NCBI GenBank assembly: GCA_964455565.1
Contig: CAYVWT010000003.1
Span: forward strand, 1-51,173
DNA: 51,173 nt
From: an uncultured Clostridiaceae bacterium
GTDB lineage: Bacteria > Bacillota > Clostridia > Monoglobales > Firm-18
Reading direction: 5' to 3'
Every line of letters begins with the position of its first letter. Positions within the stretch are counted from its first letter, which is position 1. Below, piece after piece: positions 1 to 24,480 of the stretch. Under the pieces are notes generated by a model. That model had not been told where the DNA came from and did no database searches. It was given only the letters and a program-made list of their open reading frames with translations. Both the position numbers and the translations under genes were made by a program.

Positions 1-41
1 ACCACCCAGTATATTCGGCAATTGTTTTACCTCATCCAATA

Positions 42-1862
42 TTAGCATACATTCCTGCCTGCATATTCTGTATACACAAAGCAGGTTTCACATTTATTGC
101 CATGTGCAATACAAAGGTTCCCGTTTACTTCCCAACATTTTTTATCGTATTGGAATTTAACCGGGCATTTATTGCAAATTTCACCCGAAACAAACCTCAT
201 ATTCCAGCAATAATCAAGCGAACAGTCGTTACTTGCTTTTTCTTTTCGTGTTCTATTAAGCCAAGAAAGCAGTGCATTAACAACATTTGAATCAAGCTGA
301 GTGCCTGAAACCTGTTTAATTGCATCTATCGCTTCATCATAGGTGCTTGCATCTCTGAAATTTCTGGGTGAGATTTTAGCAACGAAAAATTGTGCAATAG
401 CAAGCACTTTAGCGCCTATTGGTATATCATTGTCCTTAATTCCATAAGGGTAGCCACATCCATCAATTCTCTCGTGATGGTAGCGTATCATATTTGCAAC
501 CTTTACATCCCCATTTATGGCTTCTATTATATCTGCACCAACCTCTGAATGAAGCTTTATTACTTCATAATCATACTCTGAATATTTTCCTTTTGCAAGG
601 AATATATCGTAGGATAATGCAGCAATACCTATATTACTTAAATATGCCGCTAATTCAATATCACGAATTTCGTTCATCGGAAGCTTTAACTCATTTGCAA
701 TTCCACTCGCATAATACTCCATTAAGCTTGAAAACCCTAATGTATATGGGCTTAAATCATCAACCAAAGTGGAAATTAGCTTCAAGGTTTTTATGCTGTC
801 GTTGGAATTATCCGCAATTCTCAAAGGATTTTTAAACACCTCGGCTATTTTAGAAAACATCAACAGAAGAGAGCTAATTTGATAAGAATCCATATCATAA
901 ATCTGGTCATACCAAAAACCTGCAATTCCTGGGTTCTTACCATAACAAACATTAAATAAAATTAGTTGACGTGCTCCCTCTGAAGCTAAATATACAGGAA
1001 TCCTTTCAAAATTACTATCATTTTTGCTTATTATAGCTACTTTTTTATCTCCAAGAAATTCTTTTAAATAAAGGTGTAGGTCAGAGTCATATTTAAACAT
1101 TAGCTCACATTCATTTGAAAAGCCTGCATTTACCATTAGCTCAATTCCGTCATCTTCTTGGTTAAGGAAAAATCCACCTTTTGCTGAAATAGTTTTTGCA
1201 AACAGCCCAATTGCCATTTTATATATTCCTTCGCCGTTGATAATGCTGACGATACTTCTTATAGCCTGTTTTGATGTCTCGAGAATTTTTATTTTATTGT
1301 TCAATTGTTCTATGGATAAAACCATTGTCACAACAGGCTCGAGCTGTTTTGAAATATTTTGTAATCGGGCTTTAACTTTTCTGTTTAACGAAAATTTTGA
1401 CCTAAATTTAAGTTGAATAAGTGCATTTTCCCCCTTTACAGGAACATTTAAAATCTTTTCCTTATCAACTTCTATTATACCTATTTCACTTTTAACATCT
1501 TCGATGCTTATTCCAAGTGGGAAAACATGCCTCATTTTTTTATGAGGTATAAGCCCAGAATACGCCACATTAAGCTTGTCATCAGGCTCATTTTTAAACC
1601 GCACAGACCTCAATGAAAACTGAGATTTTTTTGAATCAGTCAAATAAAATGCATATTCATCAGCCTTTATTACAGATGAAATCATTTTAAATACTAAATT
1701 AACAGTTTCGTTTGTATTGTTAGCCTTTACGCAACAATCTATAATGCCATCATTAATTTTTTTCTCTTCCTTCACTTTTTTATCACTATTAATAAAAAGA
1801 GCTACTAATATTGCTACCACAACGGCTAACGCAAACACAATATAATAATAAATATCAATCAT
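42..1862 (-). CDS. Membrane-anchored protein with a degenerate HD-GYP domain and a C-terminal Cys-rich tail (candidate c-di-GMP receptor rather than an active phosphodiesterase)
   Basis: Track ORF 42..1877. The first ATG (1862) lies 8 nt after GGAGG, and the TTG at 1877 sits inside that RBS. The upstream gene stops at 1880-1882. There is one N-terminal TM helix (IYYYIVFALAVVVAILVALFI) and a long middle region that is GAF-like by architecture only (unverified). The family signature HHERIDGCGYPYG is present. Expected metal-ligand positions are substituted: H->F (SPYTLGFSS), HD dyad->SN (AAYLSNIGI, codons AGT AAT at 633-638), distal D->Q (LAIAQFFVA). The last 60 aa (nt 45-224) carry 9 Cys, including CNKC and CETC. 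Confidence 0.75.
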   Translation of the reverse strand: MIDIYYYIVFALAVVVAILVALFINSDKKVKEEKKINDGIIDCCVKANNTNETVNLVFKMISSVIKADEYAFYLTDSKKSQFSLRSVRFKNEPDDKLNVAYSGLIPHKKMRHVFPLGISIEDVKSEIGIIEVDKEKILNVPVKGENALIQLKFRSKFSLNRKVKARLQNISKQLEPVVTMVLSIEQLNNKIKILETSKQAIRSIVSIINGEGIYKMAIGLFAKTISAKGGFFLNQEDDGIELMVNAGFSNECELMFKYDSDLHLYLKEFLGDKKVAIISKNDSNFERIPVYLASEGARQLILFNVCYGKNPGIAGFWYDQIYDMDSYQISSLLLMFSKIAEVFKNPLRIADNSNDSIKTLKLISTLVDDLSPYTLGFSSLMEYYASGIANELKLPMNEIRDIELAAYLSNIGIAALSYDIFLAKGKYSEYDYEVIKLHSEVGADIIEAINGDVKVANMIRYHHERIDGCGYPYGIKDNDIPIGAKVLAIAQFFVAKISPRNFRDASTYDEAIDAIKQVSGTQLDSNVVNALLSWLNRTRKEKASNDCSLDYCWNMRFVSGEICNKCPVKFQYDKKCWEVNGNLCIAHGNKCETCFVYTEYAGRNVC

Positions 1863-1879
1863 AATAACTACCTCCAAGA

Positions 1880-3997
1880 TTATTGAGCTAAATTAATTGG
1901 CTTTGTACCATCTTGTTTTAGCTTGTATATTTTTAGTACATCATTTTCCCAATAAACTTCAAAATTCTCTTCTTGCTGGATTTTTTGCTGAATGTAATTT
2001 TCTATCCAATAATATGCCTTTGCCTCAACAATCCTGCGATTTTTATAATTAGTGTAGAACTTTTCATATGCCGCTCCCACGTCTGGGAAAGGTTGATTAT
2101 AATCCTCTTCAGATAGTGGGTTTGTTAAAACATACGGTTGTGCCTGATTAAGTGGCCGCTTTTCAATAAAAACAAATACATAGTCGGTTGGGAACTCAAT
2201 TTTTGCTTTTGGTTTAACTTGAGTTTCTTCAACGAATTGCCATAAATTATAATGCCATCCATACCCTAAGCTTTGTTGGTATTGTTCTACGGGTGATATT
2301 ATAGTCCAATTCAAAAGTGGAAATTCCGACTTAATTTTGTAATATGCATACGCTGCCTCGTCATATTCAAGCTTTGCTCCCACAGGCATAAGCTGTTTAT
2401 AATCCTGCGCTTGAAAAACCGTCATAATTATTAGTGCACCCATAGCAATTTTCACGATATATTTAATAAGCTTATGAAATGGGAAAAACTCAATAATATA
2501 AATTGCCATTGCAAATAAAACTACGACAATAACACCAAAAAATGTGCTTGCACGGGAAAATTCCATAACAGATGGAAAACCTACGTCTATTGAGCGAACC
2601 TGCGTGTATGTAAAGGCAGATAATACAACAAACATAACGAAAAGCTTCATTTTCCCTGTGTATTCCGGGGTTTTTTTGAAAAATATTCGTAAAAGTGCAT
2701 ACGCCAATATTACTATACCAAATATCATAAACAATTTCATAGCTGGATTTGTTTCAACGTATCTAAATATTTCTTCCTTCCAGTTAAGCTTAACGCTAGT
2801 CGTAGCGCTCTCTACAACGAAACCGAGTGACAATGCGTGGAATTTCATACCCATCGAAAGCGCAATTCCAATCGGAAGTAAACTGATTATAGTCGCAAAG
2901 CCCATTGACGCTAAAAGCTGTACGAATGTTTTGCCTTGAAATACCTTGTTAACATTGAGGATTGCAAGAATTACATATCCAATAACAAGGAACAGCGCTA
3001 CATAAAAGTGGATAAACATAGTAACAGCCAAAACCTCTGCCGCTAATATCATATATGTTTTTTTGTTTGTTGTAAAAAATAAATTTAAAAAATAAAACCC
3101 AGGTAGCAAAAATATTGTAGCATACTCCTGTGGAAGTGCAGACATTTGCCTCCAAATATTGTTTGAAGCATTTGGTAGTTCTGTGCCTAATACATACGCT
3201 GCCACGCCGATGAATATAATTAGGTATTGATTTTTAAAGCTCTTTTTTAGTATGTAATAAATTGAAAGAACTATTAAAAAGCTACCCATACCACCAAAAA
3301 ACCTTACTATAACCACAGGGTCTAAGAAAAATAGTTTGCTAATTGCAGAAATTATAGCCTCGTAACCGTATGGATATACTCCATCTTGGTAGATGCTGTT
3401 TATACCCAAATATTTCGTCCACGCTAAATGAACGTAACAGTCTGATGCGCCATAATAAAGAAACTCAAACGAATGTCTAAACCTAATTATAGCGGCAATA
3501 ATGAAAATTCCAAAGAGCAAAATGCCCGCAAAAGGATGCACAAAAAAATGTATGAAAGCATTTTTCAGTCTATCTGGCAACGCCTTTAAATATGCTTTTG
3601 CATATTTTTTTGGTCCACCCAAAAGCCCGGATTTACCATCTACTAAGTCCAAAGAAATAGAAAAAAACCCAACCTCTTCCTCTTTTACTTTATCAGTTTT
3701 AATTGAATAATTTTTGCGAATTGCAAAATATGCAATAAGCAAGGCAATTATTGCAATTGTTAAAGAAATTGTTTCGTAAATTCTAAACAAAACAAGTAAG
3801 TGAACTAAAACAATTATCGCAAAATTAGAATGAGTTAGTGATATAAATACTCTATCCGTCCAATCGTCGGATAATTCATCAAAGGTAACAGCCTTCGAAG
3901 GTATAAATATATATAATATGTAAAAAGCAAGTACAACTTTTAGAAAAAGAATTATTGTAAATTGCAACGGAAACATCATATCACCTCTTCTTTTCAA
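1880..3997 (-). CDS. Large polytopic membrane protein (over 12 predicted TM helices) with a C-terminal soluble domain; possible GT-C-type or polymer-modifying transferase, function unverified
   Basis: 705-aa ORF, hydrophobic throughout. An acidic cluster follows TM1 (FDELSDDWTD). The roughly 170-aa hydrophilic C-terminus is homologous to that of the adjacent 4010..6001 product (NWTIISPVEQYQQSLGYGWHYN vs QWMIISFQEGYTLAFGNGFHMN; DYVFVFIEKRP vs EDIFIFYEKNI). Only 2 nt separate it from the downstream gene's RBS. Confidence 0.6.
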   Translation of the reverse strand: MKRRGDMMFPLQFTIILFLKVVLAFYILYIFIPSKAVTFDELSDDWTDRVFISLTHSNFAIIVLVHLLVLFRIYETISLTIAIIALLIAYFAIRKNYSIKTDKVKEEEVGFFSISLDLVDGKSGLLGGPKKYAKAYLKALPDRLKNAFIHFFVHPFAGILLFGIFIIAAIIRFRHSFEFLYYGASDCYVHLAWTKYLGINSIYQDGVYPYGYEAIISAISKLFFLDPVVIVRFFGGMGSFLIVLSIYYILKKSFKNQYLIIFIGVAAYVLGTELPNASNNIWRQMSALPQEYATIFLLPGFYFLNLFFTTNKKTYMILAAEVLAVTMFIHFYVALFLVIGYVILAILNVNKVFQGKTFVQLLASMGFATIISLLPIGIALSMGMKFHALSLGFVVESATTSVKLNWKEEIFRYVETNPAMKLFMIFGIVILAYALLRIFFKKTPEYTGKMKLFVMFVVLSAFTYTQVRSIDVGFPSVMEFSRASTFFGVIVVVLFAMAIYIIEFFPFHKLIKYIVKIAMGALIIMTVFQAQDYKQLMPVGAKLEYDEAAYAYYKIKSEFPLLNWTIISPVEQYQQSLGYGWHYNLWQFVEETQVKPKAKIEFPTDYVFVFIEKRPLNQAQPYVLTNPLSEEDYNQPFPDVGAAYEKFYTNYKNRRIVEAKAYYWIENYIQQKIQQEENFEVYWENDVLKIYKLKQDGTKPINLAQ

Positions 3998-4009
3998 ATA
4001 ATAATGCGA

Positions 4010-6001
4010 TTACTCGCCATCCCATATTCTTCGCTTCATATCTTCCTTATCTAACTCTTGATGAATTTCCCATATTTCAAGGTCATCATCACTGCTATAC
4101 AAACTTATATTGCTATGAGTACTTTGATATTTTTCAATCCATTGCGAAAGCCTTATATTTTCTTCCAGCTTTGCTTGATACTCTTCACTTTCAACATCTG
4201 CATTATTGCTAAATATATTTTTTTCATAAAATATGAATATATCCTCTGTTTTAAGCACCTTATTAGGCTCTACAGTATAATCTACAAGCTTTTCCTCCTC
4301 GGGGTTATATATATTAATAAAATCACTAATATTCATATGAAATCCATTGCCAAAAGCAAGCGTATATCCCTCTTGAAAGCTAATTATCATCCACTGTGTG
4401 GGGCGAAATGTTTTGGATATTCTAAGGTATTGTTCAACCGTACTGCTGTGCTCTACTTTTCGCGGTATAATTGGAGCCTGTGGCAAATAAGTTAATATCA
4501 ATGCTATTGTTGCGATTAATATTGAATATCCAATAAGTCTACCTTTTATTATTAGCCCAATAAAATCTAAAATTACTACAATTCCAAATGATACTATTAT
4601 AGGTATTAGAAGTGACCAAAGGGTGCTTGCGCTTTCTACCAAATAGCTACTGCTTGTAAATAAAGCTCCATAATAATATGCTAAAAATGAAATTATAGAA
4701 AAAATCAAAACCCATAATTTAGCTATAAACAATTTCTTGTTTTTAAATGCAGGGATTAGGCTAATGAATACTAAAAGAATACAGCCTATTGCGATATAAT
4801 CAAATACTCTAAGATTTATCATTTTAACTTCATCTAAATATGTATAAATCATATTCATAGACGCAGTATTAAATGGCTTACCCATTAAAAAGCCTATAAC
4901 CATAGGCATTATCGATAATATTGCAGAAATTAACATTATAACAAATACTTCAAAAACTTTGTATATTTTGTTTTTTGCATCCCTTATAATATTGGCAAAT
5001 AATAATGATATAAGCCCTATACCAAGAAACACAAACGCCAAAGGATGGATTAAACCAATCACAGTTGCCCCCAAAGAAGCAACTAAAAAATCTTCCCACC
5101 TTGAATTATTGATAAAATCATAATAAAAATATAAAACAGGGAATATAAATACAAATGCAAATTGCTGAGGGTTTGCAGCCACAAGTGACGGCATTACATT
5201 TATAAACATACTTCCAAGCATACCATAAATAACAATAGAAAAAATTCCACCTATTTTGCTTTTAATAGTCCTTGATATAAAAAAGTACATTCCGAGGGCT
5301 ATCATAAGGCTGTTAACAGGGCCAGCAAAATTAACGATATATACTTGGTCCATTAGTGCAAATTTGTGAAGCGTTTCTAAAAATATATAGAACCCTTGGG
5401 GGTAAATATCCCCTGCAAATAGAATCCTATATGCTATGTATTTCATCCACAAAAGTGATGTAAATGTTTCACTTGCCGCTGGTGCGATATTTGTAAAAGT
5501 GCTAAATAAATACAAATATCCAGAATATGCAAGTAGCAACGCTACAAGCATTGTGTGAAGAAAAACCCAGCCATCTCCAAAATAATTTGATATTATTACG
5601 TTCGCTCTTTCTGTTTTCTCATCAAATAATTGCAGTAGCTTTCTTTCTATTCTTTCTATTCTTTCAATATGGTTTATAAAAAGAATATTTAAAATATCCT
5701 TCATATCTTTTATAATATCGCCAGAAGCAATTCTAAGCTTATAGTATTTATAGGCAACACTTAAAATAAGAACTGCAACCATAGTAATACCTTCAAATAG
5801 CTTTAACAAAACAGTAATATATCCGAAAACTATTACCCAAAACATCATTTTTACATAATTTGCAACAATGCTTTTTGTAATATCCTCTTTGTCATAAATA
5901 AAAACAAATCTTGGAACAATAACAAAAAGCAAAGTATAAGTGAAAATATATTTAATGAAACATATTATTATGTCTGTGGATAGCCCCTGCAAATATATCA
6001 C
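4010..6001 (-). CDS. Large polytopic membrane protein, tandem paralogue of 1880..3997
   Basis: 663-aa ORF with the same architecture as its neighbour: multi-TM N-terminal part plus a soluble C-terminal domain. Shared blocks include ASETFTSLLWMKYI..GDIYPQGF vs ASDCYVHLAWTKYL..DGVYPYGY. It contains an in-frame 9-nt tandem repeat encoding IERIERIER. Confidence 0.6.
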   Translation of the reverse strand: MIYLQGLSTDIIICFIKYIFTYTLLFVIVPRFVFIYDKEDITKSIVANYVKMMFWVIVFGYITVLLKLFEGITMVAVLILSVAYKYYKLRIASGDIIKDMKDILNILFINHIERIERIERKLLQLFDEKTERANVIISNYFGDGWVFLHTMLVALLLAYSGYLYLFSTFTNIAPAASETFTSLLWMKYIAYRILFAGDIYPQGFYIFLETLHKFALMDQVYIVNFAGPVNSLMIALGMYFFISRTIKSKIGGIFSIVIYGMLGSMFINVMPSLVAANPQQFAFVFIFPVLYFYYDFINNSRWEDFLVASLGATVIGLIHPLAFVFLGIGLISLLFANIIRDAKNKIYKVFEVFVIMLISAILSIMPMVIGFLMGKPFNTASMNMIYTYLDEVKMINLRVFDYIAIGCILLVFISLIPAFKNKKLFIAKLWVLIFSIISFLAYYYGALFTSSSYLVESASTLWSLLIPIIVSFGIVVILDFIGLIIKGRLIGYSILIATIALILTYLPQAPIIPRKVEHSSTVEQYLRISKTFRPTQWMIISFQEGYTLAFGNGFHMNISDFINIYNPEEEKLVDYTVEPNKVLKTEDIFIFYEKNIFSNNADVESEEYQAKLEENIRLSQWIEKYQSTHSNISLYSSDDDLEIWEIHQELDKEDMKRRIWDGE

Positions 6002-6014
6002 TCCAAGTTATTTA

Positions 6015-7622
6015 TTATGATTGAAAATATATATAATAGTCTAAATTTCTAAATAATTCGAGTATTTTCCGTGAGCTTAATATTAAAAATACTATTGAAC
6101 CAACCAAAAGCCCAAATATTGAATAATAATAGCTAAACCACCTACTAAGCACAAACCCAATAATAATATTTGCCACAAGAGAAATAAGTACTGCCCTGCT
6201 TGCCATTTCGGGCTGTGACATAGAAAACAGCGTAACACAATTCATAAGCGCAACAGATATTATTGAATAGCTAATTAGTCCAACTATAAAAACAAAATGT
6301 GTCACATAGCTCTCTAAAAAGCCACTTCTAAAACCTTCTATTGGGTAACGGTCAAAGTAAAACACAACCAAATATGTAAAAAGTGCACTTATAACTGATA
6401 TAATTGCTACATAAATAAGGCGTCTGAAATAAATTTTCCTAAACACAGTATCGATTCTAAAAGCATCCTTGCCATAAGCATTTCTTTGCTTTTCGGATAG
6501 CTCGTCCATTAGCTTACTAACAACAACCTCACACGCACCCATTGGAACAATTAGCATTAAAAGTGCAAAATCAAGCCCTAATTCATACGCACCTCTAAAC
6601 CAAATGATATATGGCATATACGAATTATTTGTAGACCAACCAATTATTCTATCCATAAATAAAAATGCAAAATATAAAAATCCATAAGCAAAAAATGGAT
6701 ATGTAGTGTAAAGCGTAATTGATTTTTTGGGAAGAGCAGGCTCTAACCCCTTCCCCATTTTACTTTCTTCCTTGTGGAAAAAATATAGAACCAACAAAAT
6801 ACCTGCTATGGAAACTATAAATAGTGCAATTATCTGAGAAACAATAATATTAAGATTTAGTACCTTGAAAAGCAAATATACTATTGCAATACCTGCAACA
6901 ATAAGACCAGTAAAAGTAAACTCTCTCTCTAAAATATACATTACCGTAACCGAAAACCAAATTGCACACAAGAAAATATAGTATAGTAAAATTACCATCA
7001 TCATTTTAAATGTAAAAGCCTCGAAAACACTATTGAATAGGAAAAATACAAGTGAAACCACTATGGTTAAAATATAGCCTAATTTTATAAAATACATAGT
7101 TATTTTCCGTGCCAAATTGAAATAACCTTGCCGTATATACATAAATCCTCTTCTTGCGATTGCCTGCATAAACCCACCAACGGTTAAAAAACTAAATATT
7201 GTACCAATAGCTATACAGGTTGCAAGCTCGACAGATAAATATTCATACGACCAAAGCGAAAAACGAAGTGTAAGCATAGCGATAACTGAAATCGCCATAG
7301 GAATTGCGAAAATTACCCCTCTTATAAAGCTTTTAAAAACAATGCCTGCCTTATGTACTAAGGAGTTCTTTTTTTCATCTGCAAACGAAGAAAAGTTAAC
7401 GTCATCATTAACCACATTAAATATTTCAAGGGCCAACTCGAAAACATCAGTCATACCAAATATATTAAGAACTCTACCATCACTCCATCCAATAGACTCT
7501 AAAATGGCGGCAATTTCATAATGATTTTCGGGATACGGCTGTTTTTCCAGCACCTCGCCTATTAAGTTATTAAAGGTTGTTTCTAACCGTTCAGCATTAA
7601 CATTTTTTTCAAAACGAATCAT
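6015..7622 (-). CDS. Polytopic membrane protein with a roughly 100-aa cytoplasmic N-terminal domain; possible exporter, family not recognised
   Basis: 535-aa ORF. The N-terminal 100 aa are hydrophilic (…HYEIAAILESIGWSDGRVLNIFGMTDVFELA…) and are followed by about 10-12 hydrophobic segments. It sits where a PelG-type exporter would be expected downstream of the PelF-like gene. I could not confirm PelG homology by eye. Confidence 0.45.
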   Translation of the reverse strand: MIRFEKNVNAERLETTFNNLIGEVLEKQPYPENHYEIAAILESIGWSDGRVLNIFGMTDVFELALEIFNVVNDDVNFSSFADEKKNSLVHKAGIVFKSFIRGVIFAIPMAISVIAMLTLRFSLWSYEYLSVELATCIAIGTIFSFLTVGGFMQAIARRGFMYIRQGYFNLARKITMYFIKLGYILTIVVSLVFFLFNSVFEAFTFKMMMVILLYYIFLCAIWFSVTVMYILEREFTFTGLIVAGIAIVYLLFKVLNLNIIVSQIIALFIVSIAGILLVLYFFHKEESKMGKGLEPALPKKSITLYTTYPFFAYGFLYFAFLFMDRIIGWSTNNSYMPYIIWFRGAYELGLDFALLMLIVPMGACEVVVSKLMDELSEKQRNAYGKDAFRIDTVFRKIYFRRLIYVAIISVISALFTYLVVFYFDRYPIEGFRSGFLESYVTHFVFIVGLISYSIISVALMNCVTLFSMSQPEMASRAVLISLVANIIIGFVLSRWFSYYYSIFGLLVGSIVFLILSSRKILELFRNLDYYIYFQS

Positions 7623-7635
7623 TTATTAGTCCCCA

Positions 7636-8697: not shown

Positions 8698-8726
8698 TTT
8701 GACACCTCCTCTTTACCAAATAATTA

Positions 8727-9158: not shown

Positions 9159-9186
9159 GAAGTTCACCTCCTATTTATATTTTAAA

Positions 9187-10920
9187 TTAATATATATTTA
9201 AGTTAGCCAAAGCGGTGGTTTTTTGGATTTCAAAATTTGCTTTGTCATTTTTCCCTAATTTCTTGTATGCATTTGCTATTTCAAGTGTAAGCACCGGAAC
9301 TAATGGCGTATTAGGTGAAGACGCTATGGCTTCTTTAAACTGCTCAATCGCTTCGTTAATATACCCCATATTAAGCAATGTATAACCTTTTTCTGCATAA
9401 AACTTTTGTTTCTGCAAAAGCGATATAGGTAGTACCTTTTTAATTTCGATATCTGCTGTCATTAATCCTTTATATGAATTATAATGGTTTTCTAACACTT
9501 TTTCAATAGAAAAATAACTTATTGCTCTCTCACGAGACCTTTTTCCCAAATCTGCAATCATTTCTGGGTCCTTAAGTAGCTTTATAATTCCTGCCGCAAG
9601 CTCATCTGGAGCCTTTGGTGTAACTAATATTCCACAATCTCCAATTGCCTCTTTAATTCCACCAACATCGGTTGATACCACAGGTTTCCCACTCATCATT
9701 GCCTCGACAACTGAATAAGGAAATGCTTCTGAAATGCTTGATAATGCTATTATATCACCACTATTATATGCAGCTGGAACGTCATTTGTGTGCCCTGCAA
9801 AAATAAAATTATCTTTAAGATCAAGCTTTGCAACTCTTTTTAAGCATTCTTGATAATAATCCTCAACTGAAACAGAACCATATACAACCATCTTAACATC
9901 TGGTATTTCTTTTCGGATAATATCGGTAGCCTCAATAAGTGAGATAATATCTTTTAATGGATCTATTCTTGCAATTGATACAACTGTTGGCGAGCTATTT
10001 TTATTTTTCACCTCCATAGGAGCAAAAATGTTATTGTCTACACCATTATATATTACATTTATCTTTGACTTTTCAACGCCAAAACGTTCTTCCCAACGGG
10101 TGTTATATTTACAAACAGGTGAAACAATATCTGCATAATGATAATTCACACTTATTATTGAATTTATCATACGGATAAAAAATGTATTTAAAAAAGACGG
10201 ATATCCCCTTTTAGATAGGGATAGATATTGCTCACGAATATACACTCCATGTTCTGTAAGCATATATGGTGTTTTGTTTTCGATTTTTGATAATATGCAA
10301 GGAATTCCACAAAATGCCGCCGCCGCAGAATGAGTAACATCAACCTTTGGAATTGGGGTGTTTAGCGTAACCATAAACCTGTAAACCCAGCCTAAGCTTT
10401 GAATAAGGGCATATATGCTTGGGGCATCGATATTATTTTCTGCATCATTTGCAAAATCACTAACAAGTTCCTTATATACTTCCCATGTAATTTCAGATTT
10501 GAAGCTTTTTTTATATTCATAATTTTGAAAATATAAATATAAATCGTAAAATATTTCCCCAAGCTTTTGTGGGTTCTTTTCAATACTTAATATTTCAAGT
10601 ATAAGCACCTTAAAAAGAGGTATAAATTTTTTAGAAACTACATCGTCTGTCGTTCTTTTTTTAAGCAAATATACCTTTGAAAAAGGCACATCAAGGTGTT
10701 CGCATGGTTCTTCCGTGCCCCAAAGAGGGACTTTTAAAAGCTCGGTAGAAGAAGGTAGGTCATATATTTGTGAAACGTATGGGTTCATCATTAGGCTGTA
10801 TAATACATAATCAACACCTTGTAGCTGTTTAACAAGAATATCACACCATGTACTAACGCCGCCCGGATGGAACGGATATGTTCCCTCTGTTGACAACATT
10901 ACTTTTATATTATCGCTCAC
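9187..10920 (-). CDS. pelF: PelF-like GT4 glycosyltransferase with a C-terminal TPR extension
   Basis: GTG start at 10920, 5 nt after GGGAGGG. The N-terminal LSTEGTYPFHPGGVSTW matches the EG.YP...GGVS.W motif of the PelF/DUF3492 N-domain. A GT4 E-x7-E motif is present (SEAFPYSVVEAM, then GKPVVSTDVGG). The last roughly 75 aa are TPR-like (YAEKGYTLLNMGYINEAIEQFKEAI…LEIANAYKKLGKNDKA). Confidence 0.7.
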   Translation of the reverse strand: MSDNIKVMLSTEGTYPFHPGGVSTWCDILVKQLQGVDYVLYSLMMNPYVSQIYDLPSSTELLKVPLWGTEEPCEHLDVPFSKVYLLKKRTTDDVVSKKFIPLFKVLILEILSIEKNPQKLGEIFYDLYLYFQNYEYKKSFKSEITWEVYKELVSDFANDAENNIDAPSIYALIQSLGWVYRFMVTLNTPIPKVDVTHSAAAAFCGIPCILSKIENKTPYMLTEHGVYIREQYLSLSKRGYPSFLNTFFIRMINSIISVNYHYADIVSPVCKYNTRWEERFGVEKSKINVIYNGVDNNIFAPMEVKNKNSSPTVVSIARIDPLKDIISLIEATDIIRKEIPDVKMVVYGSVSVEDYYQECLKRVAKLDLKDNFIFAGHTNDVPAAYNSGDIIALSSISEAFPYSVVEAMMSGKPVVSTDVGGIKEAIGDCGILVTPKAPDELAAGIIKLLKDPEMIADLGKRSRERAISYFSIEKVLENHYNSYKGLMTADIEIKKVLPISLLQKQKFYAEKGYTLLNMGYINEAIEQFKEAIASSPNTPLVPVLTLEIANAYKKLGKNDKANFEIQKTTALANLNIY

Positions 10921-10957
10921 AAATACCCTCCCATCTTATATATTTTTTATAAACATC

Positions 10958-11311
10958 TTACTCTTGGCTTTTAAATTTATCTACTTCCATTTTTAATAAT
11001 CCAACCTCTTGTATTAAAGTATTTACAAGAATAAATGTTTTTGATAATGCCTTTGTTAAAGAAAGGATTATTAGTATAAGCCCAAAGGTTATAATAAGAA
11101 ACAACGTATTTACAGGCTGTTTAATGGACAAAATATCGGATATTAATTCTATTGCTCCTGGCAGAATAGTTATTATTATCAGTCCAATTGTTGATACAAG
11201 CCAAACAAGTGCATAATGTAATTCTAATTTTCTATTTGCAACAAGATTGATTATATATATAAGAAAAACTGTTGTTGTAACTAATAGAATAATTTGTAGC
11301 CTTGTGTCCAA
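10958..11311 (-). CDS. Small 4-TM membrane protein (DUF2304-like), typically partnered with a GT2
   Basis: 117 aa with three to four hydrophobic helices and a short charged C-terminus (LLKMEVDKFKSQE). It lies immediately downstream of a soluble GT2, which is the usual DUF2304 context. Confidence 0.5.
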   Translation of the reverse strand: MDTRLQIILLVTTTVFLIYIINLVANRKLELHYALVWLVSTIGLIIITILPGAIELISDILSIKQPVNTLFLIITFGLILIILSLTKALSKTFILVNTLIQEVGLLKMEVDKFKSQE

Positions 11312-11344
11312 TATAATTTCCCCCTAAAAATGACATTAGTAAAT

Positions 11345-12046
11345 TTATTTTTTAGTTCTTTTTGCAATAGCTGTGATAAGAATTGCGGTTATAACCTTTA
11401 TCATATAATAAACTGATGCCTTTTTACCTATACTTGAGCTTCCGTTAATTCTTTCGTTCATTGTAACTGGAACTTCACATACTTTAAGACCATATTTACT
11501 TGCAGTAACTATCGAGCCTGGCTCTGGATAATCATGCGGATATTCCCAAGCAAAAAGCCTTGTTGCCTTTTTATCACAAACTCTGTAACCAGAGGTAGGA
11601 TCTGAAATATCTTCGCCTGTAAGTATTCTAATAAGCCAGTATAAAATTAATATTCCAAGCCTTCTAATTGCAGATGACTGAAAACCCTCGTAGGTGATAA
11701 ATCTTGAACCAACACAAAGATTATTCCCATTCTTAACAGCCTCTATCATTTTCTCCATACAAGCTGGGCTATGCTGTCCGTCGCCGTCTAATTGGACTAC
11801 AATATCATAATTATTATATACGGCATATTTAAACCCTGTTTGTCTTGCCCCACCTATGCCTAAATTGGCAGGTAATTTAACTACCATCTCTCTATTTCTT
11901 TCTCGGCATATTTTGTAGGAATTATCAATAGAACCATCATCTATAACAAGCACGTCATAGTAGGGGCATTTTTCCCTTATTTCATCTAAGACAAGAGAAA
12001 TGTTTTTTTCCTCGTTAAAAATCGGAATAATAATTAGTACCTTCAT
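11345..12046 (-). CDS. Family 2 glycosyltransferase (Dpm1/GtrB-like polyprenyl-phosphate sugar synthase type)
   Basis: MKVLIIIPIFNEEKNI…YDVLVIDDGSIDNS…VQLDGDGQHSP (GT-A fold with DxD). A hydrophobic or amphipathic C-terminal helix is present (YYMIKVITAILITAIA). Confidence 0.8.
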   Translation of the reverse strand: MKVLIIIPIFNEEKNISLVLDEIREKCPYYDVLVIDDGSIDNSYKICRERNREMVVKLPANLGIGGARQTGFKYAVYNNYDIVVQLDGDGQHSPACMEKMIEAVKNGNNLCVGSRFITYEGFQSSAIRRLGILILYWLIRILTGEDISDPTSGYRVCDKKATRLFAWEYPHDYPEPGSIVTASKYGLKVCEVPVTMNERINGSSSIGKKASVYYMIKVITAILITAIAKRTKK

Positions 12047-12088
12047 TCAATATCCCCTATCATTTGTGTTTTTTATTAGTGTTTTTTA

Positions 12089-13405
12089 TTAGTATTTAAA
12101 TTCGTCATTTTCCCAATAGCCATTTTTAATTGTGCTATCTGCAGAAACTTGCTTGCCATTACCATTTTTCTTTCCGTTTTTCCATTCACCTTCATATAAT
12201 TCGCCAGTTGAATAATAAAAAGTGCCATATCCGTTAAATTCGCCATTACTCCACTGACCATCATAATAATTGCCATTATTCCATTGGAACCGACCTTTTC
12301 CAGAAATAAGCCCCTTATGCCATCCTCCAGAATAACTGTCACCACTTACCCATCTCATTGTGCCAATTCCTTGAAAAACTCCATCAACAATCTCGCCATC
12401 ATAATTATCGCCATTTGGCCATTGAAGGTTACATTTTCCATTCATACTATCGTTCTTCCAACCGCCAGAATATATAAACCCATCGGTTCGAGTTAGTTTT
12501 CCTTGCCCCTCTCGAATTCCGCCTGAAACCTGCCCTTCATACCTGCTACCGTCCTCATAATTTACTGCACCATAACCATTTGGAATACCATTAAAGCTTT
12601 CACCAATATATGCCGAACCATCTTTCATAGCAAGAACTTGGTTTTGATTAGAGTTAGAGTTAGAGTTAGAATTCGTATAATTATTATCTGTATTTGAAGT
12701 ATAAGTGTTGAAAACTGGCGCCTGATAATGCCCGTTGTAATAAGAAAAACCCAGCCTTACAAGGCGTTCTGTTTGAAGTTGGTTATTACTTGCTATTTTG
12801 TCAATGAGCACAGTATTATCATATGTTTTAACCTTCAAAGTTTCCCATAAAATTTCAATCATATCATTCTTGTTAAGAACTTTATCGTTTAAATTTTTAG
12901 CTTCTTTTGGAGGAATACCGCCAAAATAGGAATTGATATAAGCAGAAATTGTCGACATATTACTATCTAAGCTATATCCCATAGATTTTAATAGCATAGC
13001 TGTGAAAGTCTTTCCATCAATAAGCCTTTTAGGTGAAATGCTGTTACCTTGAATATCTAACAGTATCCTTTGATTAATTCCATAAGCAATATATTTTCTT
13101 GCCCAATCAGAAACCGTTGATCTGTCATTATAATTATTTAAGATGTTCCTAACATCGTATTCTGAGAGGCTTTGAATATCACTTTTCGATTTTACTAATC
13201 TCAGCAAAAATACAACCGCTGTTTCTGTATCAACGAAAGAGTTTAAGTCGGGCTCGAAAAAGCTTTGCGAAACACCATTATAAAAACCTAAATCATATAG
13301 AATTCTTGCTTCTTCAATATAGCTATTAGAAGCATATACATTAAAGCTAAGCGAAAATGTTAAAAGCAAAATAATACTTATTATATTTTTCATTATTCTT
13401 ACCAT
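12089..13405 (-). CDS. Secreted MORN-repeat protein with an SLH-like N-terminal module
   Basis: Signal peptide MVRIMKNIISIILLLTFSLSFNVYA. The N-terminal half has SLH-like segments (GFYNGVSQSFFEPDLNSFVDTETAVVFLLRL; DWARKYIAYGINQRIL). An (NS)n/NQ linker follows, then at least 7 MORN-type repeats (YEGQVSGGIREGQG, YSGGWKNDSMNGKC, YDGEIVDGVFQGIG, YSGGWHKGLISGKG, YDGQWSNGEFNGYG, YEGEWKNGKKNGNG). Confidence 0.7.
   Translation of the reverse strand: MVRIMKNIISIILLLTFSLSFNVYASNSYIEEARILYDLGFYNGVSQSFFEPDLNSFVDTETAVVFLLRLVKSKSDIQSLSEYDVRNILNNYNDRSTVSDWARKYIAYGINQRILLDIQGNSISPKRLIDGKTFTAMLLKSMGYSLDSNMSTISAYINSYFGGIPPKEAKNLNDKVLNKNDMIEILWETLKVKTYDNTVLIDKIASNNQLQTERLVRLGFSYYNGHYQAPVFNTYTSNTDNNYTNSNSNSNSNQNQVLAMKDGSAYIGESFNGIPNGYGAVNYEDGSRYEGQVSGGIREGQGKLTRTDGFIYSGGWKNDSMNGKCNLQWPNGDNYDGEIVDGVFQGIGTMRWVSGDSYSGGWHKGLISGKGRFQWNNGNYYDGQWSNGEFNGYGTFYYSTGELYEGEWKNGKKNGNGKQVSADSTIKNGYWENDEFKY
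12640..12676. repeat. In-frame hexanucleotide tandem repeat (gagtta)n encoding the (NS)n linker of the MORN protein
   Basis: gattagagttagagttagagttagaattc read directly. It translates on the minus strand as NSNSNSNSN. Confidence 0.9.
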
Positions 13406-13450
13406 AAGCCAACGACCTCTCCATTAAAACCAAGATACCTACTATTGCCT

Positions 13451-15340
13451 TTAAACGTACATATATGCCTCTTCTTCAGGCAATGGTTTTGCTAAATAAA
13501 ACCCTTGCAAATAATCACATTTCATATCTACAAGCATCTCACATTGAATATTATCTTCAACGCCCTCTGCTACTACTTTAAGCCCTAAATCATGGGTTAT
13601 GCTTATAATTGACCTAATAAACATTTCGCATTTTTCATTTGTTTTTAAATCGTCTAAGAAGGTTTTGTCTATTTTAATAATAGAAACTGGCATTTTCAAT
13701 AAATATGATAGGCTTGAATAGCCTGTGCCAAAATCGTCAATTGAAATAGTAATGCCCATATTTCTAATTTGTTCAATCTTCAAGCAATTTTCTTTAAAGT
13801 TATCCATAAAGCAGGATTCTGTTATCTCAAACCCTAAATTGTTTGGAGAAACACCTATTTGTTCAATAATTTTGGTAATATTTCCGATGAATTCATCTTT
13901 TAATATCTGCGTTGGTGTAAAATTTATATACACAATCAAATTTTTCTTACTGTTTTTTGAATTTATCCTCTTAGCAAAATAGCACGCCTTTTTAAATATA
14001 AGGTCGGTTATGTCATCTAATAGAGCCTCTTTTTCTGCTATTTGAATAATGTTATAAATAGGAATTTTATTGTATCTTTCATCTGTCCACCTAAGAAGCG
14101 CTTCAAACCCATACAATTCCTTGGTTTCAGATAAATACTGTGGTTGATAGTATAGTTCAAGTGCTTTTTGTTCTATTGCCTCAACTAAGTCAAGCTTCAT
14201 ATCATTACTAAATTTCAAATCATCAATCAAAACTTCATCTGCAAAATAGTATAAATTTTTGCCTTGATCTTTCGACTTATATAAAGCAATGCCGGCATAA
14301 TTCATAATAGCTTCGCTATTATTTGAATTGTTATCATATACAGAAATACCAATATTGGCAGATAACTCAGCCTTTTTATCTTTAACTATAATTTTTCTGC
14401 TAATTTGCTTTAAAATAATTTTCGCTAATTTCCCAATAGTATCTGCATTGCCTATGCCATTATATATTATGCCTACTTGGTCATAAGAGAGCCTTGCAAC
14501 ATATAGGTTGTCATTTATGCCTTTAATTCTGGTTAAAACTTCATTTATGAGTATATCATCAGAATATGAATCGAACAAGTAATTTGCAACAATAAATTCA
14601 TTTATTTCTATAAGAAGCAATGCTCCACTTGCTTTTTCGCCACCATCTGCACTATTTAAAATTGCATTTAAATTTTTTAAAAATTCCGTCTTTGTATCAT
14701 TATATGACGCCAGGCTTTTTATTACTTTTTCTTCAACAATTTTTGGTATTTTGTTGTAGGGCTTTGCCTCTTCATCTCTTTTACCAAAGAGTCCTATCAC
14801 ATCATTTTTATTATTTCCTGTAAAATCAACATTTTTTATCACGTTAAAATCTTCGTCATCTGATACGTGCATATTACCTTTTATGTGTATATCATCTATA
14901 TTTGTTTTTAGCAAAGAAATAACCTGAGCCAACAAATTTTCAATTCTTTCTTTTTTGTCATCAATTTCGTTTTGCAGGTCATTTAGGATTGCGTCATATT
15001 CTTCAATCTGAAACTTCGCTCTTTCTATAATTTGTTCGATTTTCTGATTTGCAATTTCGTCAATAAGTGAAATTGTTTTTTCAACCCTTTTATGAGCATC
15101 AATCATAAGCTCATTTTGGTTTATAAGTGGGGCTTCATCTTTATATATTATTTGATCTTGCTTCGCTTGTTCAAGTTCAAGAAGCAAATTTTCTTTTTTA
15201 GTTTCAAGCATTTTGATTTCTCTAATTAGCTTGTTTAATAATTTATTATGTCCTTCTAAAAGGCTCTCAATAAAATAATCGACATCATCTTTGTTAAGCC
15301 CTAAATATTTAGTTGGTATAGTTATATTTGGTGGTAACAT
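13451..15340 (-). CDS. DivIVA-like N-terminal coiled coil fused to a degenerate GGDEF domain and an intact EAL domain (c-di-GMP phosphodiesterase)
   Basis: The likely start is the ATG at 15340 (MLPPNITIPTKYLGLNKDDVDYFIESL), which aligns with the start of paralogue 7636..8697. The GGDEF motif position reads SYDQV (VARLSYDQVGII). EAL catalytic motifs are all present: YGFEALLRW, YINFTP, GFEITES, IDDFGTGYSS, IKIDKTF, VAEGVED, LQGFYLAKP. Confidence 0.8.
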   Translation of the reverse strand: MLPPNITIPTKYLGLNKDDVDYFIESLLEGHNKLLNKLIREIKMLETKKENLLLELEQAKQDQIIYKDEAPLINQNELMIDAHKRVEKTISLIDEIANQKIEQIIERAKFQIEEYDAILNDLQNEIDDKKERIENLLAQVISLLKTNIDDIHIKGNMHVSDDEDFNVIKNVDFTGNNKNDVIGLFGKRDEEAKPYNKIPKIVEEKVIKSLASYNDTKTEFLKNLNAILNSADGGEKASGALLLIEINEFIVANYLFDSYSDDILINEVLTRIKGINDNLYVARLSYDQVGIIYNGIGNADTIGKLAKIILKQISRKIIVKDKKAELSANIGISVYDNNSNNSEAIMNYAGIALYKSKDQGKNLYYFADEVLIDDLKFSNDMKLDLVEAIEQKALELYYQPQYLSETKELYGFEALLRWTDERYNKIPIYNIIQIAEKEALLDDITDLIFKKACYFAKRINSKNSKKNLIVYINFTPTQILKDEFIGNITKIIEQIGVSPNNLGFEITESCFMDNFKENCLKIEQIRNMGITISIDDFGTGYSSLSYLLKMPVSIIKIDKTFLDDLKTNEKCEMFIRSIISITHDLGLKVVAEGVEDNIQCEMLVDMKCDYLQGFYLAKPLPEEEAYMYV

Positions 15341-15499
15341 ATTATTACATTCCTTCCCTTGTATAAGCATAAACAGTATATACTTATATTAATTACACAA
15401 TGTAATTATACCTGTTATTAAACATATATTAAAGGCTTTTGTTATTTTTGGAATATGTAATGTATTTTTTAAATCATAATAACTAAAAATATAACGTTT

Positions 15500-16216
15500 C
15501 TACATTCCATCATACTCTGTAAGATATTTCGTATAATGCATAAAGGCTGCCTTTTTCCTGCTTTTACTTATGGGGATTACATAACCATTAGTGAGTATAA
15601 TATCACCCTCAACAATTGTTTTTATATGTGCCATATTAACCAAAAAACCCTGATGGACTCGAACAAATCCAAAAGTTTTTAACCTTTCCTCTTCGATTGT
15701 AAGCTTTGAATAAAAACCTATTCTGTCATTTGTGGTTACGGCAAAAACTTGCCTCTTAACACTTTCTAAATATAATAAATTATCTATATTTATTGTGATT
15801 AGCCTTGATTTTGTTTGTACAGAATATCGCTTTTCATTTTTGAATAATTCTTTGATGGCACTACTATAAGCTTTTTTTATTTGCTCCTCTGTAAAAGGCT
15901 TCATAATGTATCTAAATGCTTTCACCTCGTAGCCTAAAAAAACATAGTCCATACTTGATGTAACAAAAAATACTAAAACGCTACTATCAATTTCCAAAAT
16001 GCTCCTTACTGTTTCTATGCCATCAAGCTTTCCAAGCTTTGTTTCAAGGAATATCATATTAAAACGTATGCCCTTCTTTTTATACGCTGCAATAAGGTCC
16101 TCTCCACTATTATATAAATATATTTCCATTTCTCGGAATTCACGGTTATAGCTGCTTAATATTTGCCTTAATTCCTCAGCACTATTATTATCACAATCGC
16201 AAATTGCAATTTTCAT
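15500..16216 (-). CDS. Orphan LytTR-family response regulator with an atypical receiver domain (Glu at the phospho-acceptor position)
   Basis: The ATG at 16216 (MKIAICDCDNN) lies downstream of GGAAAGGA. Receiver domain: NMIFLETKLGKLDGIE, where the canonical motif is ..D..MP.MDG (D->E); FFVTS and IMKPF are conserved. C-terminal LytTR domain: LLYLESVKRQVFAVTTNDRIGFYSKLTIEEERL…FVRVHQGFLVNMAHI. No histidine kinase gene is adjacent. Confidence 0.8.
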   Translation of the reverse strand: MKIAICDCDNNSAEELRQILSSYNREFREMEIYLYNSGEDLIAAYKKKGIRFNMIFLETKLGKLDGIETVRSILEIDSSVLVFFVTSSMDYVFLGYEVKAFRYIMKPFTEEQIKKAYSSAIKELFKNEKRYSVQTKSRLITINIDNLLYLESVKRQVFAVTTNDRIGFYSKLTIEEERLKTFGFVRVHQGFLVNMAHIKTIVEGDIILTNGYVIPISKSRKKAAFMHYTKYLTEYDGM

Positions 16217-21145: not shown

Positions 21146-21237
21146 AATTTTTTCTCCTCTTATATAATTTTATTTTTTATTGTTAAATTTACATATATAT
21201 TAACAAGGTAGCCCTTGAAATAATTTATTTAGAGTAC

Positions 21238-24477: not shown

Positions 24478-24480
24478 ATT

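Follow-up and report, generated by a model that had tools for sequence, protein, structure and literature searches.

A putative Pel-type polysaccharide locus with GpsB/DivIVA-type adaptors and GT-C-fold proteins in an uncultured Clostridiaceae bacterium

What partners does a PelF glycosyltransferase have when several canonical Pel proteins are not encoded beside it? The question arises for a gene array in contig CAYVWT010000003.1 (positions 1-51,173, forward strand; this whole stretch of 51,173 nt is called the window below). An initial annotation described the array as centred on PelF, wired to cyclic-di-GMP and unlike any described synthase-dependent system. Our literature search likewise found no paper describing this layout. 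We consider it somewhat better than an even bet that this is a Pel-type, synthase-dependent machine for an envelope or biofilm polysaccharide, with a distinct Firmicutes architecture; its mechanism we propose from sequence comparisons and structure models.

The ORF listing agrees with the layout described previously. Eleven co-directional, closely spaced ORFs occupy the reverse strand from 42 to 15340 (start of the uppermost ORF at 15370 or 15340), with gaps of 2-45 nt, and an orphan LytTR response regulator is encoded upstream on the same strand (15500 to 16216 or 16267; Pfam LytTR 5e-18, Response_reg 4e-11). The listing contains no histidine kinase gene adjoining the regulator, which heads the array in close relatives as well (loci L004-L007, L017 and L019). 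The array had been thought to stop at 42, but a further co-directional ORF begins with an ATG at 48, overlaps the stop of the preceding HD-GYP gene (overlap ATGCTAA) and continues past the window edge, so that only its first 16 codons (1..48, reverse strand) are visible. Its N-terminus, MLILDEVKQ, is similar to LSNILDDIKK of the GH114 gene in L019. In 10 related loci the next gene after that for the HD-GYP protein is GH114-like, and this ORF is probably the beginning of such a hydrolase gene. Promoter-like hexamers that match the consensus (TTAATA, 16 nt, TATAAT; 15405..15432, reverse strand) lie in the gap of 129 nt that precedes the EAL gene. The count of promoter-like sites in the region was not above that in shuffled controls, and promoter and terminator scans of the region gave no informative signal.

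An identical order of 12 genes was found in the same six related metagenomic loci, and the portion present on a short contig (L008) agrees with it; protein identity across these loci is 45-96%. Such recurrence shows that the genes did not come together by chance. A core comprising PelF, adaptors, PelG, GT-C, GT2, DUF2304, pseudo-HD-GYP and GH114 genes also occurs in Clostridium, Paenibacillus, Gracilibacter, Gorillibacterium and Pelotomaculum. The cluster is thus widespread in spore-forming Firmicutes, and it joins PelF and PelG, the core pair of Pel, to proteins for which we found no published link to Pel. A CE4 deacetylase is encoded in the Clostridium, Paenibacillus and Pelotomaculum sister clusters, and a MurJ/Wzx-like gene in those of Clostridium and Paenibacillus. 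The genes are thus co-conserved in related loci, a property on which the initial annotation had made its reading depend.

The assignment to the Pel type is based on two proteins. The first is a cytoplasmic GT4 of 577 aa (9187..10920, reverse strand), which has the DUF3492 N-domain of PelF (Pfam DUF3492 2e-36, 126.7 bits; Glycos_transf_1 6e-35, 120.8 bits) and matches the NCBIfam PelF model NF038011 over its full length (141.6 bits; cutoff 100). Its C-terminal extension carries a TPR_8 match at residues 507-537, the sole TPR match in the array (Pfam). The description of the locus as PelF-centred is therefore supported. The second is a protein of 535 aa (6015..7622, reverse strand), previously listed as an unknown transporter, which we identify as a divergent PelG of the MOP superfamily. 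The window's own protein does not match the Pfam PelG model PF16933; the assignment is made by family, in which 19 of 30 members tested, about 50% identical to the window protein, match that model (best 3e-11). Its AlphaFold2 model (pLDDT 78.9) matches the folds of MATE, MurJ and WzxE, and a conserved four-helix cytoplasmic extension precedes the transporter fold. Family matches and predicted fold together identify it as the 12-TM MOP-superfamily membrane protein of Pel systems.

GT2, GT4 and MOP-family proteins are also common in capsule loci, and the array might be no more than a common capsule or teichoic-acid locus in which the signalling genes are incidental. The initial annotation had named a generic GT4 lacking DUF3492, or ordinary Wzx/Wzy components, as signs of such a locus. 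The GT4, however, has DUF3492, a domain specific to PelF, and scores above the cutoff of the PelF model; the transporter belongs to a family with PelG matches, and conservation of the cluster extends to its signalling genes. Profile searches of the window genes gave no matches to Wzy, Wzz, CpsD, TagF, TagGH or LCP proteins, and no priming phosphoglycosyl transferase or ABC exporter was found. The searches largely refute this explanation, which we regard as very improbable.

All Pel components other than PelF had been reported as unrecognisable; this is wrong for PelG, but for three others it holds in Pfam searches. PelD (TM, GAF and degenerate GGDEF with RxxD) is absent from the array, in which the sole GGDEF domain is that of the EAL protein and has neither GAF nor RxxD; a separate PelE (a small TPR membrane protein) is absent among the window genes; and none of the 14 products encoded between 42 and 21145 matches Polysacc_deac_1, the CE4 deacetylase family. 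Like pelDEA(DA)FG of Bacillus cereus ATCC 10987 (Whitfield et al. 2020, PMC7112168) and pelA-G of Pseudomonas, the locus combines a DUF3492-containing PelF, a MOP-family PelG, a linked PelA-hydrolase/GH114-type enzyme and linked cyclic-di-GMP domain proteins. In contrast to these systems, PelG here has an extra N-terminal cytoplasmic domain, a TPR fused to PelF and GpsB/DivIVA-type adaptors are found instead of a separate PelE, and GT-C enzymes are added together with a GT2/DUF2304 lipid-sugar synthase. The CE4 deacetylase of Pel systems, matched in the sister clusters, is absent from this sub-lineage. Accessory genes known from pel loci of clostridia and streptococci (CotH, polyphosphate polymerase, DUF4956 and DUF4832) are absent too.

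PelD binds c-di-GMP at its RxxD site, and other exopolysaccharide synthases, such as those activated by Listeria PssE and Bacillus subtilis YdaK, also depend on c-di-GMP receptors with degenerate signalling domains. The present locus likewise encodes a membrane-tethered degenerate domain of the cyclic-di-GMP type, together with an operon-linked EAL enzyme. Unlike in PelD, PssE and YdaK, the degenerate domain is an HD-GYP rather than a GGDEF domain. It belongs to a membrane-anchored GAF/HD-GYP protein of 611 aa (42..1877, reverse strand; Pfam HD_5 1e-28), the family profile of which matches the HD-GYP structures 5z7c (1e-40) and 4mcw and the GAF domain 3ci6 (7e-5); its conserved Cys-rich C-terminal tail is a further difference. 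The HD-GYP domain had already been described as degenerate, correctly: LSNIG stands in place of LHDIGK, so that the HD dyad is replaced by SN, and the intact H...HD...H...HH...D motifs of an active HD-GYP phosphodiesterase are not present. This change and that of GHS to GF/YS occur in the window protein and nine of ten aligned orthologs, while HHExxDGxGYP is retained. The Gracilibacter ortholog (L014) keeps the HD dyad, and catalysis is therefore not lost in all orthologs. The changes persist among orthologs that share only 26-60% identity, and such retention speaks for a non-catalytic role under selection. Judged by these motifs, the GAF/pseudo-HD-GYP protein is a candidate cyclic-dinucleotide receptor and PelD analog. 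Its ligand need not be c-di-GMP, since HD-GYP domains can act on 3'3'-cGAMP (the best PDB match was 5z7c). In our literature search, no report was found of a degenerate HD-GYP domain as a polysaccharide-synthase receptor.

The EAL protein (13451..15340, reverse strand) had been described as a DivIVA-EAL phosphodiesterase, and both parts of this description stand; a degenerate GGDEF domain between them had been overlooked (Pfam EAL 1e-63, GGDEF 2e-13). In the alignment the GGDEF motif reads SYDQV and RxxD is lacking, whereas the EAL motifs are intact, suggesting a probable c-di-GMP phosphodiesterase. The view that the locus is wired to c-di-GMP is borne out to the extent that domains of this type are present in its products. 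Five kilobases upstream, a c-di-GMP-I riboswitch aptamer (21296..21388, reverse strand; Rfam RF01051, 63.3 bits with a gathering score of 35, E 2e-10) lies in the leader of a surface lectin/SLH gene (18575-21145).

Three coiled-coil proteins had been called DivIVA-like, and all three retain this assignment. The EAL protein shares its N-domain (43% identity) with a 353-aa adaptor (7636..8697, reverse strand), which continues into a coiled coil, an acidic linker and a C-domain of about 60 aa; a profile of the shared N-domain matches the GpsB N-domain with an E value of 2.6e-6. In all loci that extend far enough, the gene immediately before the PelG-like gene encodes a protein ending in the adaptor's conserved C-terminal domain, and a profile of this domain matches an insertion in the RNA polymerase beta subunit (8e-5). 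The third protein (146 aa; 8727..9167, reverse strand) has a GpsB/DivIVA-like N-terminal motif (NCBIfam DivIVA-related 2e-4); the best PDB profile matches of its family are GpsB/DivIVA (E 0.003-0.02), and an equivalent small gene comes after PelF in most loci. As in the GpsB/DivIVA cell-wall adaptors of Firmicutes, an N-domain is followed by coiled coils in the three operon proteins. Unlike the housekeeping adaptors, these are dedicated to a polysaccharide operon and are fused to GGDEF-EAL or to the PelG-linked C-domain.

Hydrolase and surface protein genes complete the locus. Upstream of the LytTR gene, a secreted protein of 689 aa (16401..18470, reverse strand) contains Cu_amine_oxidN1, a GH114-like (beta/alpha)-barrel hydrolase domain and an fn3-like domain (Pfam). 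Its middle domain was aligned with the cluster-linked GH114 family by hhalign (probability 97.2%, E 3e-11) and by hmmsearch (9e-12), and homologs adjoin the LytTR gene in L019 and, in divergent orientation, in L006 and L017. A PelA-/GH114-type glycoside hydrolase is thus linked to the operon, and GH114-like counterparts of the PelA hydrolase domain are predicted on both flanks of the array, probably so at the 48 end. The MORN protein noted before (438 aa; 12089..13405, reverse strand) carries six MORN repeats (Pfam, 8e-31) behind a signal peptide visible in the sequence, and its residues 16-102 are similar to the SLH part of the lectin protein. SLH proteins abound in the neighbourhood, which also includes a CsaB-type pyruvyl transferase.

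The remaining genes resemble a three-component glycosylation module, of which the GT2 and the DUF2304-like small membrane protein had been recognized and are confirmed by NCBIfam and Pfam. The GT2 (233 aa; 11345..12046, reverse strand) belongs by similarity to the polyprenyl-phosphate sugar synthases of the GacI/PpgS/DPMS type (NCBIfam AglJ 2e-23 and PpgS 1e-20, both below equivalog cutoffs; PDB matches DPMS 2e-19, ArnC and GtrB). Its neighbour (117 aa; 10958..11311, reverse strand) is a member of the GacJ/Rv3632 family (Pfam DUF2304 3e-19, 69.6 bits; cutoff 25.5), and the two genes adjoin in every locus carrying the pair. In the group A carbohydrate pathway, GacI depends on GacJ as its activator and produces the GlcNAc-P-Und used by GacL, a GT-C enzyme (bioRxiv 10.1101/180810). 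By analogy, the DUF2304 protein may be the activator subunit of the GT2.

The GT-C component would be provided by two polytopic proteins of 663 aa (4010..6001) and 705 aa (1880..3997, both reverse strand), described earlier as paralogs without a family name. Their paralogy is upheld over the full length (22% identity, E 6e-30), and the AlphaFold2 model of the 663-aa protein (pLDDT 78.9, pTM 0.80) has a GT-C fold. Its 22 best Foldseek matches in the PDB are all GT-C proteins (STT3, PglB, AglB, DPY19, AftA, ArnT and PMT), with E values of 1e-6 to 3e-4 at ranks 1-19 and weaker ones at ranks 20-22 (ArnT 3e-3, PMT about 0.1); the TM-scores are moderate only (0.38-0.46). GT-C transferases of such modules carry a catalytic acidic residue in an outer loop; here, none of the acidic residues after TM1, in the first outer loop, is invariant, and D218 is invariant in a later loop. 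The family of the 663-aa protein comprises 1303 representatives; the paralogs' family has no Pfam model, and DUF6541 matches are weak. The 663-aa type occurs directly after the PelG-like gene in every related locus, and an ortholog of the 705-aa type follows it in L004-L008, L011, L013 and L015. We infer that the two GT-C paralogs and the GacI/GacJ-like pair form a lipid-phosphate-sugar decoration module. Similar sets of GT2, DUF2304 and GT-C proteins are GacI/GacJ/GacL of Streptococcus pyogenes and PpgS/Rv3632/Rv3779 of Mycobacterium tuberculosis. Those act in rhamnan or arabinogalactan pathways, whereas this set lies inside a PelF/PelG cluster and contains two GT-C paralogs. In contrast to the Gac module with its GacK/Wzx-type flippase, the window encodes no dedicated lipid-phosphate-sugar flippase (GtrA or Wzx type) besides PelG.

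The module might serve another target altogether. Two independent systems would then lie side by side, PelF/PelG and the adaptors making one polymer, and GT2, DUF2304 and GT-C glycosylating a secondary cell-wall polymer, teichoic acid or S-layer/SLH proteins, in the manner of GacIJL, CsbB/YfhO or protein O-glycosylation. Protein-glycosylating enzymes (OST, PglB, PMT and DPY19) are indeed among the best fold matches, and the SLH-rich surroundings with the CsaB-type enzyme would suit such targets. The placement of GT2/DUF2304 also varies among sub-lineages, being upstream of PelF in the window type and far downstream in the Clostridium/Paenibacillus type. However, the pair lies within the cluster wherever flanks extend, and the GT-C gene directly follows PelG in 18 of 18 loci examined. 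Linkage this strict, in families that share only about 30% identity, points to a single pathway, and we think two separate systems unlikely.

A single pathway could also be lipid-linked throughout, with PelF building an oligosaccharide on undecaprenyl phosphate, PelG flipping it like Wzx or MurJ, and GT-C proteins acting as polymerase or ligase outside, much as arabinan or O-antigen is assembled. The folds matched by the PelG-like model include not only MATE pumps but also MurJ and WzxE, which flip lipid-linked sugars, and AftA is an example of a GT-C enzyme that extends a polymer from a lipid-phosphate donor. Yet profile searches of the window genes yielded no priming phosphoglycosyl transferase, Wzy, Wzz or LCP ligase, the sole lipid-sugar enzyme falls into the DPMS/GacI monophosphate class, members of which supply single sugars, and the literature ties the PelF family to synthase-type Pel production. 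We give this scheme a lower probability still than two separate systems.

For the favoured Pel-type machine we propose the following scheme. PelF would polymerize a HexNAc-type chain from UDP-sugar at the membrane, and PelG would export it. The Pel product is a partly deacetylated, alpha-1,4-linked GalNAc-rich polymer; given the linked GH114 genes, a GalNAc-rich alpha-1,4-linked chain is plausible here, but as this sub-lineage has no CE4 enzyme, the product may not be cationic, partly deacetylated Pel. The GAF/pseudo-HD-GYP protein would take the role of PelD as cyclic-di-GMP receptor and activator, and the PelF TPR tail and the GpsB/DivIVA-type adaptors would functionally replace PelE. The 353-aa adaptor may dock on PelG via its conserved C-terminal domain, and the N-domain common to adaptor and EAL enzyme suggests that the latter is recruited to the same scaffold, where it would lower the local c-di-GMP level. 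Outside the membrane, the two GT-C enzymes would decorate the polymer or a wall acceptor with Und-P-sugar made by the GT2/DUF2304 pair, GH114-like hydrolases would trim the polymer, and the MORN/SLH-like protein would keep it at the wall. Transcription would be controlled by the orphan LytTR regulator.

With PelG, the GT-C fold, the GH114-like genes and the CE4 enzymes of sister clusters recognized, the system resembles Pel more closely, and is easier to explain, than the initial annotation held; it nonetheless remains a distinct architecture. More tentatively, it may represent a Firmicutes-wide class in which a membrane-anchored GAF/pseudo-HD-GYP c-di-GMP switch, a synthase and its own EAL enzyme placed at defined membrane sites by dedicated GpsB/DivIVA-type adaptors, and extracellular glycosylation of a Pel-like chain by GT-C enzymes that a GacI/GacJ-type lipid-sugar synthase feeds are combined. 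If this is true, the GAF/pseudo-HD-GYP protein would be the first case of an HD-GYP-derived protein serving an exopolysaccharide synthase as its receptor.

The ORF listing of the window places eleven minus-strand genes between 15370 (probable start 15340) and 42, separated by gaps of 2, 12, 13, 13, 29, 19, 37, 33, 42 and 45 nt. A LytTR response regulator (15500-16216) lies 129 nt from the array and has no adjoining kinase, confirming the orphan regulator upstream of eleven co-directional genes that was described in the initial annotation. A promoter and terminator scan of the array region gave the same result as shuffled controls and was uninformative on transcript structure. The remainder of the window is spore-former housekeeping DNA (DnaK, LepA, a shikimate operon, SpoIIP, Gpr).

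Scanning genomes with the array's 535-aa protein, together with contig look-ups and tblastn/blastp maps, yielded 18 related loci. Six of them (L004-L007, L017 and L019, the closest relative) carry the identical twelve genes in identical order: LytTR, GGDEF-EAL, MORN, GT2, DUF2304 and PelF, followed by the 146-aa, 353-aa, 535-aa, 663-aa, 705-aa and HD-GYP proteins. The downstream part of the same array is also present on a short contig, L008. These genomes come from uncultured Eubacteriales, Oscillospiraceae and "Firmicutes ADurb.Bin193", with identities of 45 to 96% at the protein level. We conclude from these comparisons that the twelve-gene arrangement is conserved, with chance ruled out. 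In L019, whose PelG identity is 96%, the GGDEF-EAL gene is split into two ORFs of 573 and 115 aa (2013-4167), and the second GT-C gene of L005 is divided between ORFs of 500 and 249 aa (13544-15629); these are either frameshifts or assembly errors.

A broader core also occurs in Clostridium swellfunianum, C. algoriphilum, Paenibacillus, Gracilibacter and Gorillibacterium. It comprises PelF, a small protein with a coiled coil, another whose C-terminal domain is that of the 353-aa protein, the 535-aa protein, the 663-aa type (with a second copy in some), GT2 and DUF2304, HD-GYP and GH114. A Pelotomaculum locus, cut by a contig end, shows the part of this core from PelF to the first GT-C gene. 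Such clusters variably also encode an ATP-grasp enzyme, a deacetylase (CE4/DUF3473), a flippase resembling MurJ, and sugar-nucleotide enzymes.

Domain scans upheld the DUF3492 plus GT4, GT2, DUF2304, MORN, HD_5 (HD-GYP) and EAL calls made earlier. PelF (9187-10920) combines DUF3492 with GT4, scores 141.6 bits with the NCBIfam PelF model (cutoff 100) and carries a TPR extension at its C-terminus. Direct Pfam/NCBIfam scans, even at E≤10, matched nothing in the 535-, 663-, 705- and 353-aa proteins, and family-level scans and fold prediction were needed to place them. The 535-aa protein (6015-7622) had been described as unknown. Its family members are ~50% identical to the window copy, and 19 of 30 match PelG PF16933 (best 3e-11); its AlphaFold2 model (pLDDT 78.9) matches MATE, MurJ and WzxE. 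Because of these family matches and the MOP-type fold of the model, we identify the protein as a divergent PelG. An additional cytoplasmic domain of four helices, strongly conserved, forms its N-terminus, and the PelG-like profile had no match among PDB sequences. We also considered an ordinary capsule locus. Profile searches found none of the components that define a Wzx/Wzy capsule or teichoic-acid locus, so we rejected that reading, and these results effectively exclude the ordinary capsule locus.

The 663-aa (4010-6001) and 705-aa (1880-3997) proteins are paralogs (E 6e-30), as the initial annotation had it. The 22 best PDB fold matches of the 663-aa model (pLDDT 78.9, pTM 0.80) are GT-C glycosyltransferases only (STT3, PglB, AglB, DPY19, AftA, ArnT, PMT), with moderate TM-scores of 0.38-0.46. 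The first 19 have E-values of 1e-6 to 3e-4, and the last three (ArnT and two PMT chains) are weaker. The model stands on a shallow alignment, since a third homolog search with the GT-C alignment returned the same 12 proteins and none new. Two of 12 family members weakly match DUF6541, and the GT-C family profile had no match among PDB sequences. At 50% clustering the family has 1303 representatives and is without a Pfam model of its own. The GT2 protein falls in the polyprenyl-phosphate sugar synthase class (AglJ/PpgS; matches to DPMS, ArnC and GtrB), and the DUF2304 protein belongs to the GacJ/Rv3632 family. By binding GacI, GacJ stimulates its synthesis of GlcNAc-P-Und, which feeds the GT-C enzyme GacL (bioRxiv 10.1101/180810). 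Because of these class and fold matches and this precedent, GT2, DUF2304 and the two GT-C proteins are predicted to form a coherent extracytoplasmic glycosylation module. We also considered a lipid-linked, Wzx-like route in which the GT-C enzymes would be the polymerase.

In the 611-aa protein (42-1877) a single TM helix is followed by a GAF domain and a second region with no assigned fold, then by an HD-GYP domain and finally by a tail rich in Cys. Its family profile matches the PtsP GAF domain at 7e-5 and HD-GYP structures at up to 1e-40. In the window protein and in almost every ortholog, even at identities as low as 26%, the HD dyad is replaced by SN and the first His of GHS by F or Y, while HHExxDGxGYP is kept; among the aligned orthologs, Gracilibacter alone retains both catalytic motifs. 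The conserved absence of the metal site suggests a sensing rather than a catalytic role, and the layout of TM helix, GAF and degenerate domain mirrors that of PelD. The tail (window 42-230, minus strand; residues about 550-611) has the pattern CW..C..CxxCP..CW..CxxHG..CxxCF, for which no family match was found. It is present in most orthologs, is missing from one Paenibacillus copy and may be a metal or redox-sensing module. In L004 (19375-20058), L006 (19404-20117) and L017 (19431-20144), all on the minus strand of their contigs, a second, small stand-alone HD-GYP gene (227-237 aa) lies just downstream of the cluster on the opposite strand.

The EAL protein had been called a phosphodiesterase, and its EAL domain is present with intact motifs; overlooked at that stage was a GGDEF domain, whose motif is degenerate (SYDQV) and which lacks the RxxD site. 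Over its N-terminal 150 residues it shares 43% identity with the 353-aa protein (7636-8697), and a joint profile of the two N-domains matches the GpsB N-domain at 2.6e-6. GpsB/DivIVA are also the best matches of the 146-aa coiled-coil family (8727-9167; E 0.003-0.02). The gene for the 353-aa protein always adjoins PelG, and a C-terminal domain of ~60 aa (window 7636-7815, minus strand) is the only universally conserved part of this family. Weak leads for this domain are a profile match to an RNAP beta-subunit lineage-specific insertion (3e7h, E 8e-5), a faint PRC-barrel Pfam match in one homolog and SAF at 0.011.

In ten related loci a GH114-like gene (~250 aa) follows the HD-GYP gene, and in relatives a Big_2/MORN protein comes next. 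In the window, an ORF on the minus strand (1-48) starts at 48, overlaps the HD-GYP stop (ATGCTAA) and runs past the edge, and the start of its product is similar to that of the GH114 protein in the closest relative. The operon therefore continues beyond the window and is cut by its edge. Upstream of the array, a 689-aa secreted protein (16401-18470, minus strand) has Cu_amine_oxidN1, a GH114-homologous middle domain and an fn3-like end. No Pfam model detected its hydrolase domain and it had no match among PDB sequences; the middle domain was aligned with the cluster-linked GH114-like family by hhalign (probability 97.2%, E 3e-11). Downstream of the L019 cluster, 19460-21358 encodes a secreted protein of 632 aa for which no Pfam match is recorded. 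Its middle region, with a DWVGASLY motif, is presumably glycoside-hydrolase-like, and its C-terminal region presumably resembles a copper-amine-oxidase N-terminal-type domain. The MORN protein (12089-13405, minus strand) has six MORN repeats behind a signal peptide. It is probably wall-anchored, because its residues 16-102 resemble the SLH region of the lectin protein encoded nearby (33% identity over 88 aa, E 0.001).

The gene for this 856-aa legume-lectin/Ig-like/SLH surface protein (18575-21145) has in its leader a c-di-GMP-I riboswitch aptamer (21296-21388, minus strand; Rfam RF01051, 63.3 bits, E 2e-10), 5 kb upstream of the operon on the same strand. In six related loci, Rfam scanning detected no c-di-GMP riboswitch up to 10 kb from PelG, a distance their flanks barely reach, and the window riboswitch is thus not assignable to the conserved system. 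Further upstream (21446-25482), a CsaB-type polysaccharide pyruvyl transferase (minus strand) and two GT2 genes with an NAD-dependent epimerase/dehydratase (plus strand) resemble a locus for a secondary cell-wall polymer that would be used by the nearby SLH-domain proteins.

In Gram-positive bacteria the Pel operon has been published as pelDEA(DA)FG, and pel accessories in clostridia and streptococci are CotH, a polyphosphate polymerase, DUF4956 and DUF4832 (PMC7112168). A companion survey detected some Gram-positive loci with pelF and pelG alone, without further analysis (PMC7112194). Our literature search (PelF/PelG, DUF2304, DUF3492, degenerate HD-GYP), with most subscription journals outside its coverage, found no description of the present architecture. 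Because PelF, PelG and a hydrolase are present whereas PelD, PelE and the deacetylase are missing, and because no description was found, we read the array as a Pel variant whose core would work as in Pel, whose regulatory and scaffolding parts differ, and which has gained a GT-C arm for decoration. Two independent pathways whose adjacency is incidental were also considered.

For the Pel variant we infer, in every functional step, the following mechanism. PelF would polymerise a chain of HexNAc type, which would be exported via PelG. The pseudo-HD-GYP/GAF protein would sense a cyclic dinucleotide and activate the complex in the stead of PelD, and the part of PelE would fall to the PelF TPR tail and GpsB/DivIVA-type adaptors, which would tether the complex or position it. 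The EAL enzyme, brought in through the shared N-domain, would provide local signal turnover. GT2/DUF2304 would supply an Und-P-sugar, and outside the membrane the two GT-C enzymes would transfer this sugar either onto the polymer or onto a wall acceptor. The polymer would be trimmed by GH114-like enzymes, and MORN/SLH-like proteins would keep it at the wall.

The cluster is widespread and uncharacterised, and these predictions are directly testable because culturable carriers exist (Clostridium algoriphilum, C. swellfunianum and several Paenibacillus). The GT-C family, with about 1300 sequence clusters, is itself uncharacterised, and its role can now be tested. The degenerate HD-GYP protein is a candidate for the first case of such a domain acting as a receptor. 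Pel is among the few biofilm polysaccharides common to Gram-negative and Gram-positive bacteria, and a natural variant that keeps PelF and PelG and swaps PelD and PelE would tell the essential components apart from the interchangeable ones. Tying GpsB/DivIVA proteins, adaptors of the cell-pole or septum type, to polysaccharide secretion would imply spatially targeted matrix production.
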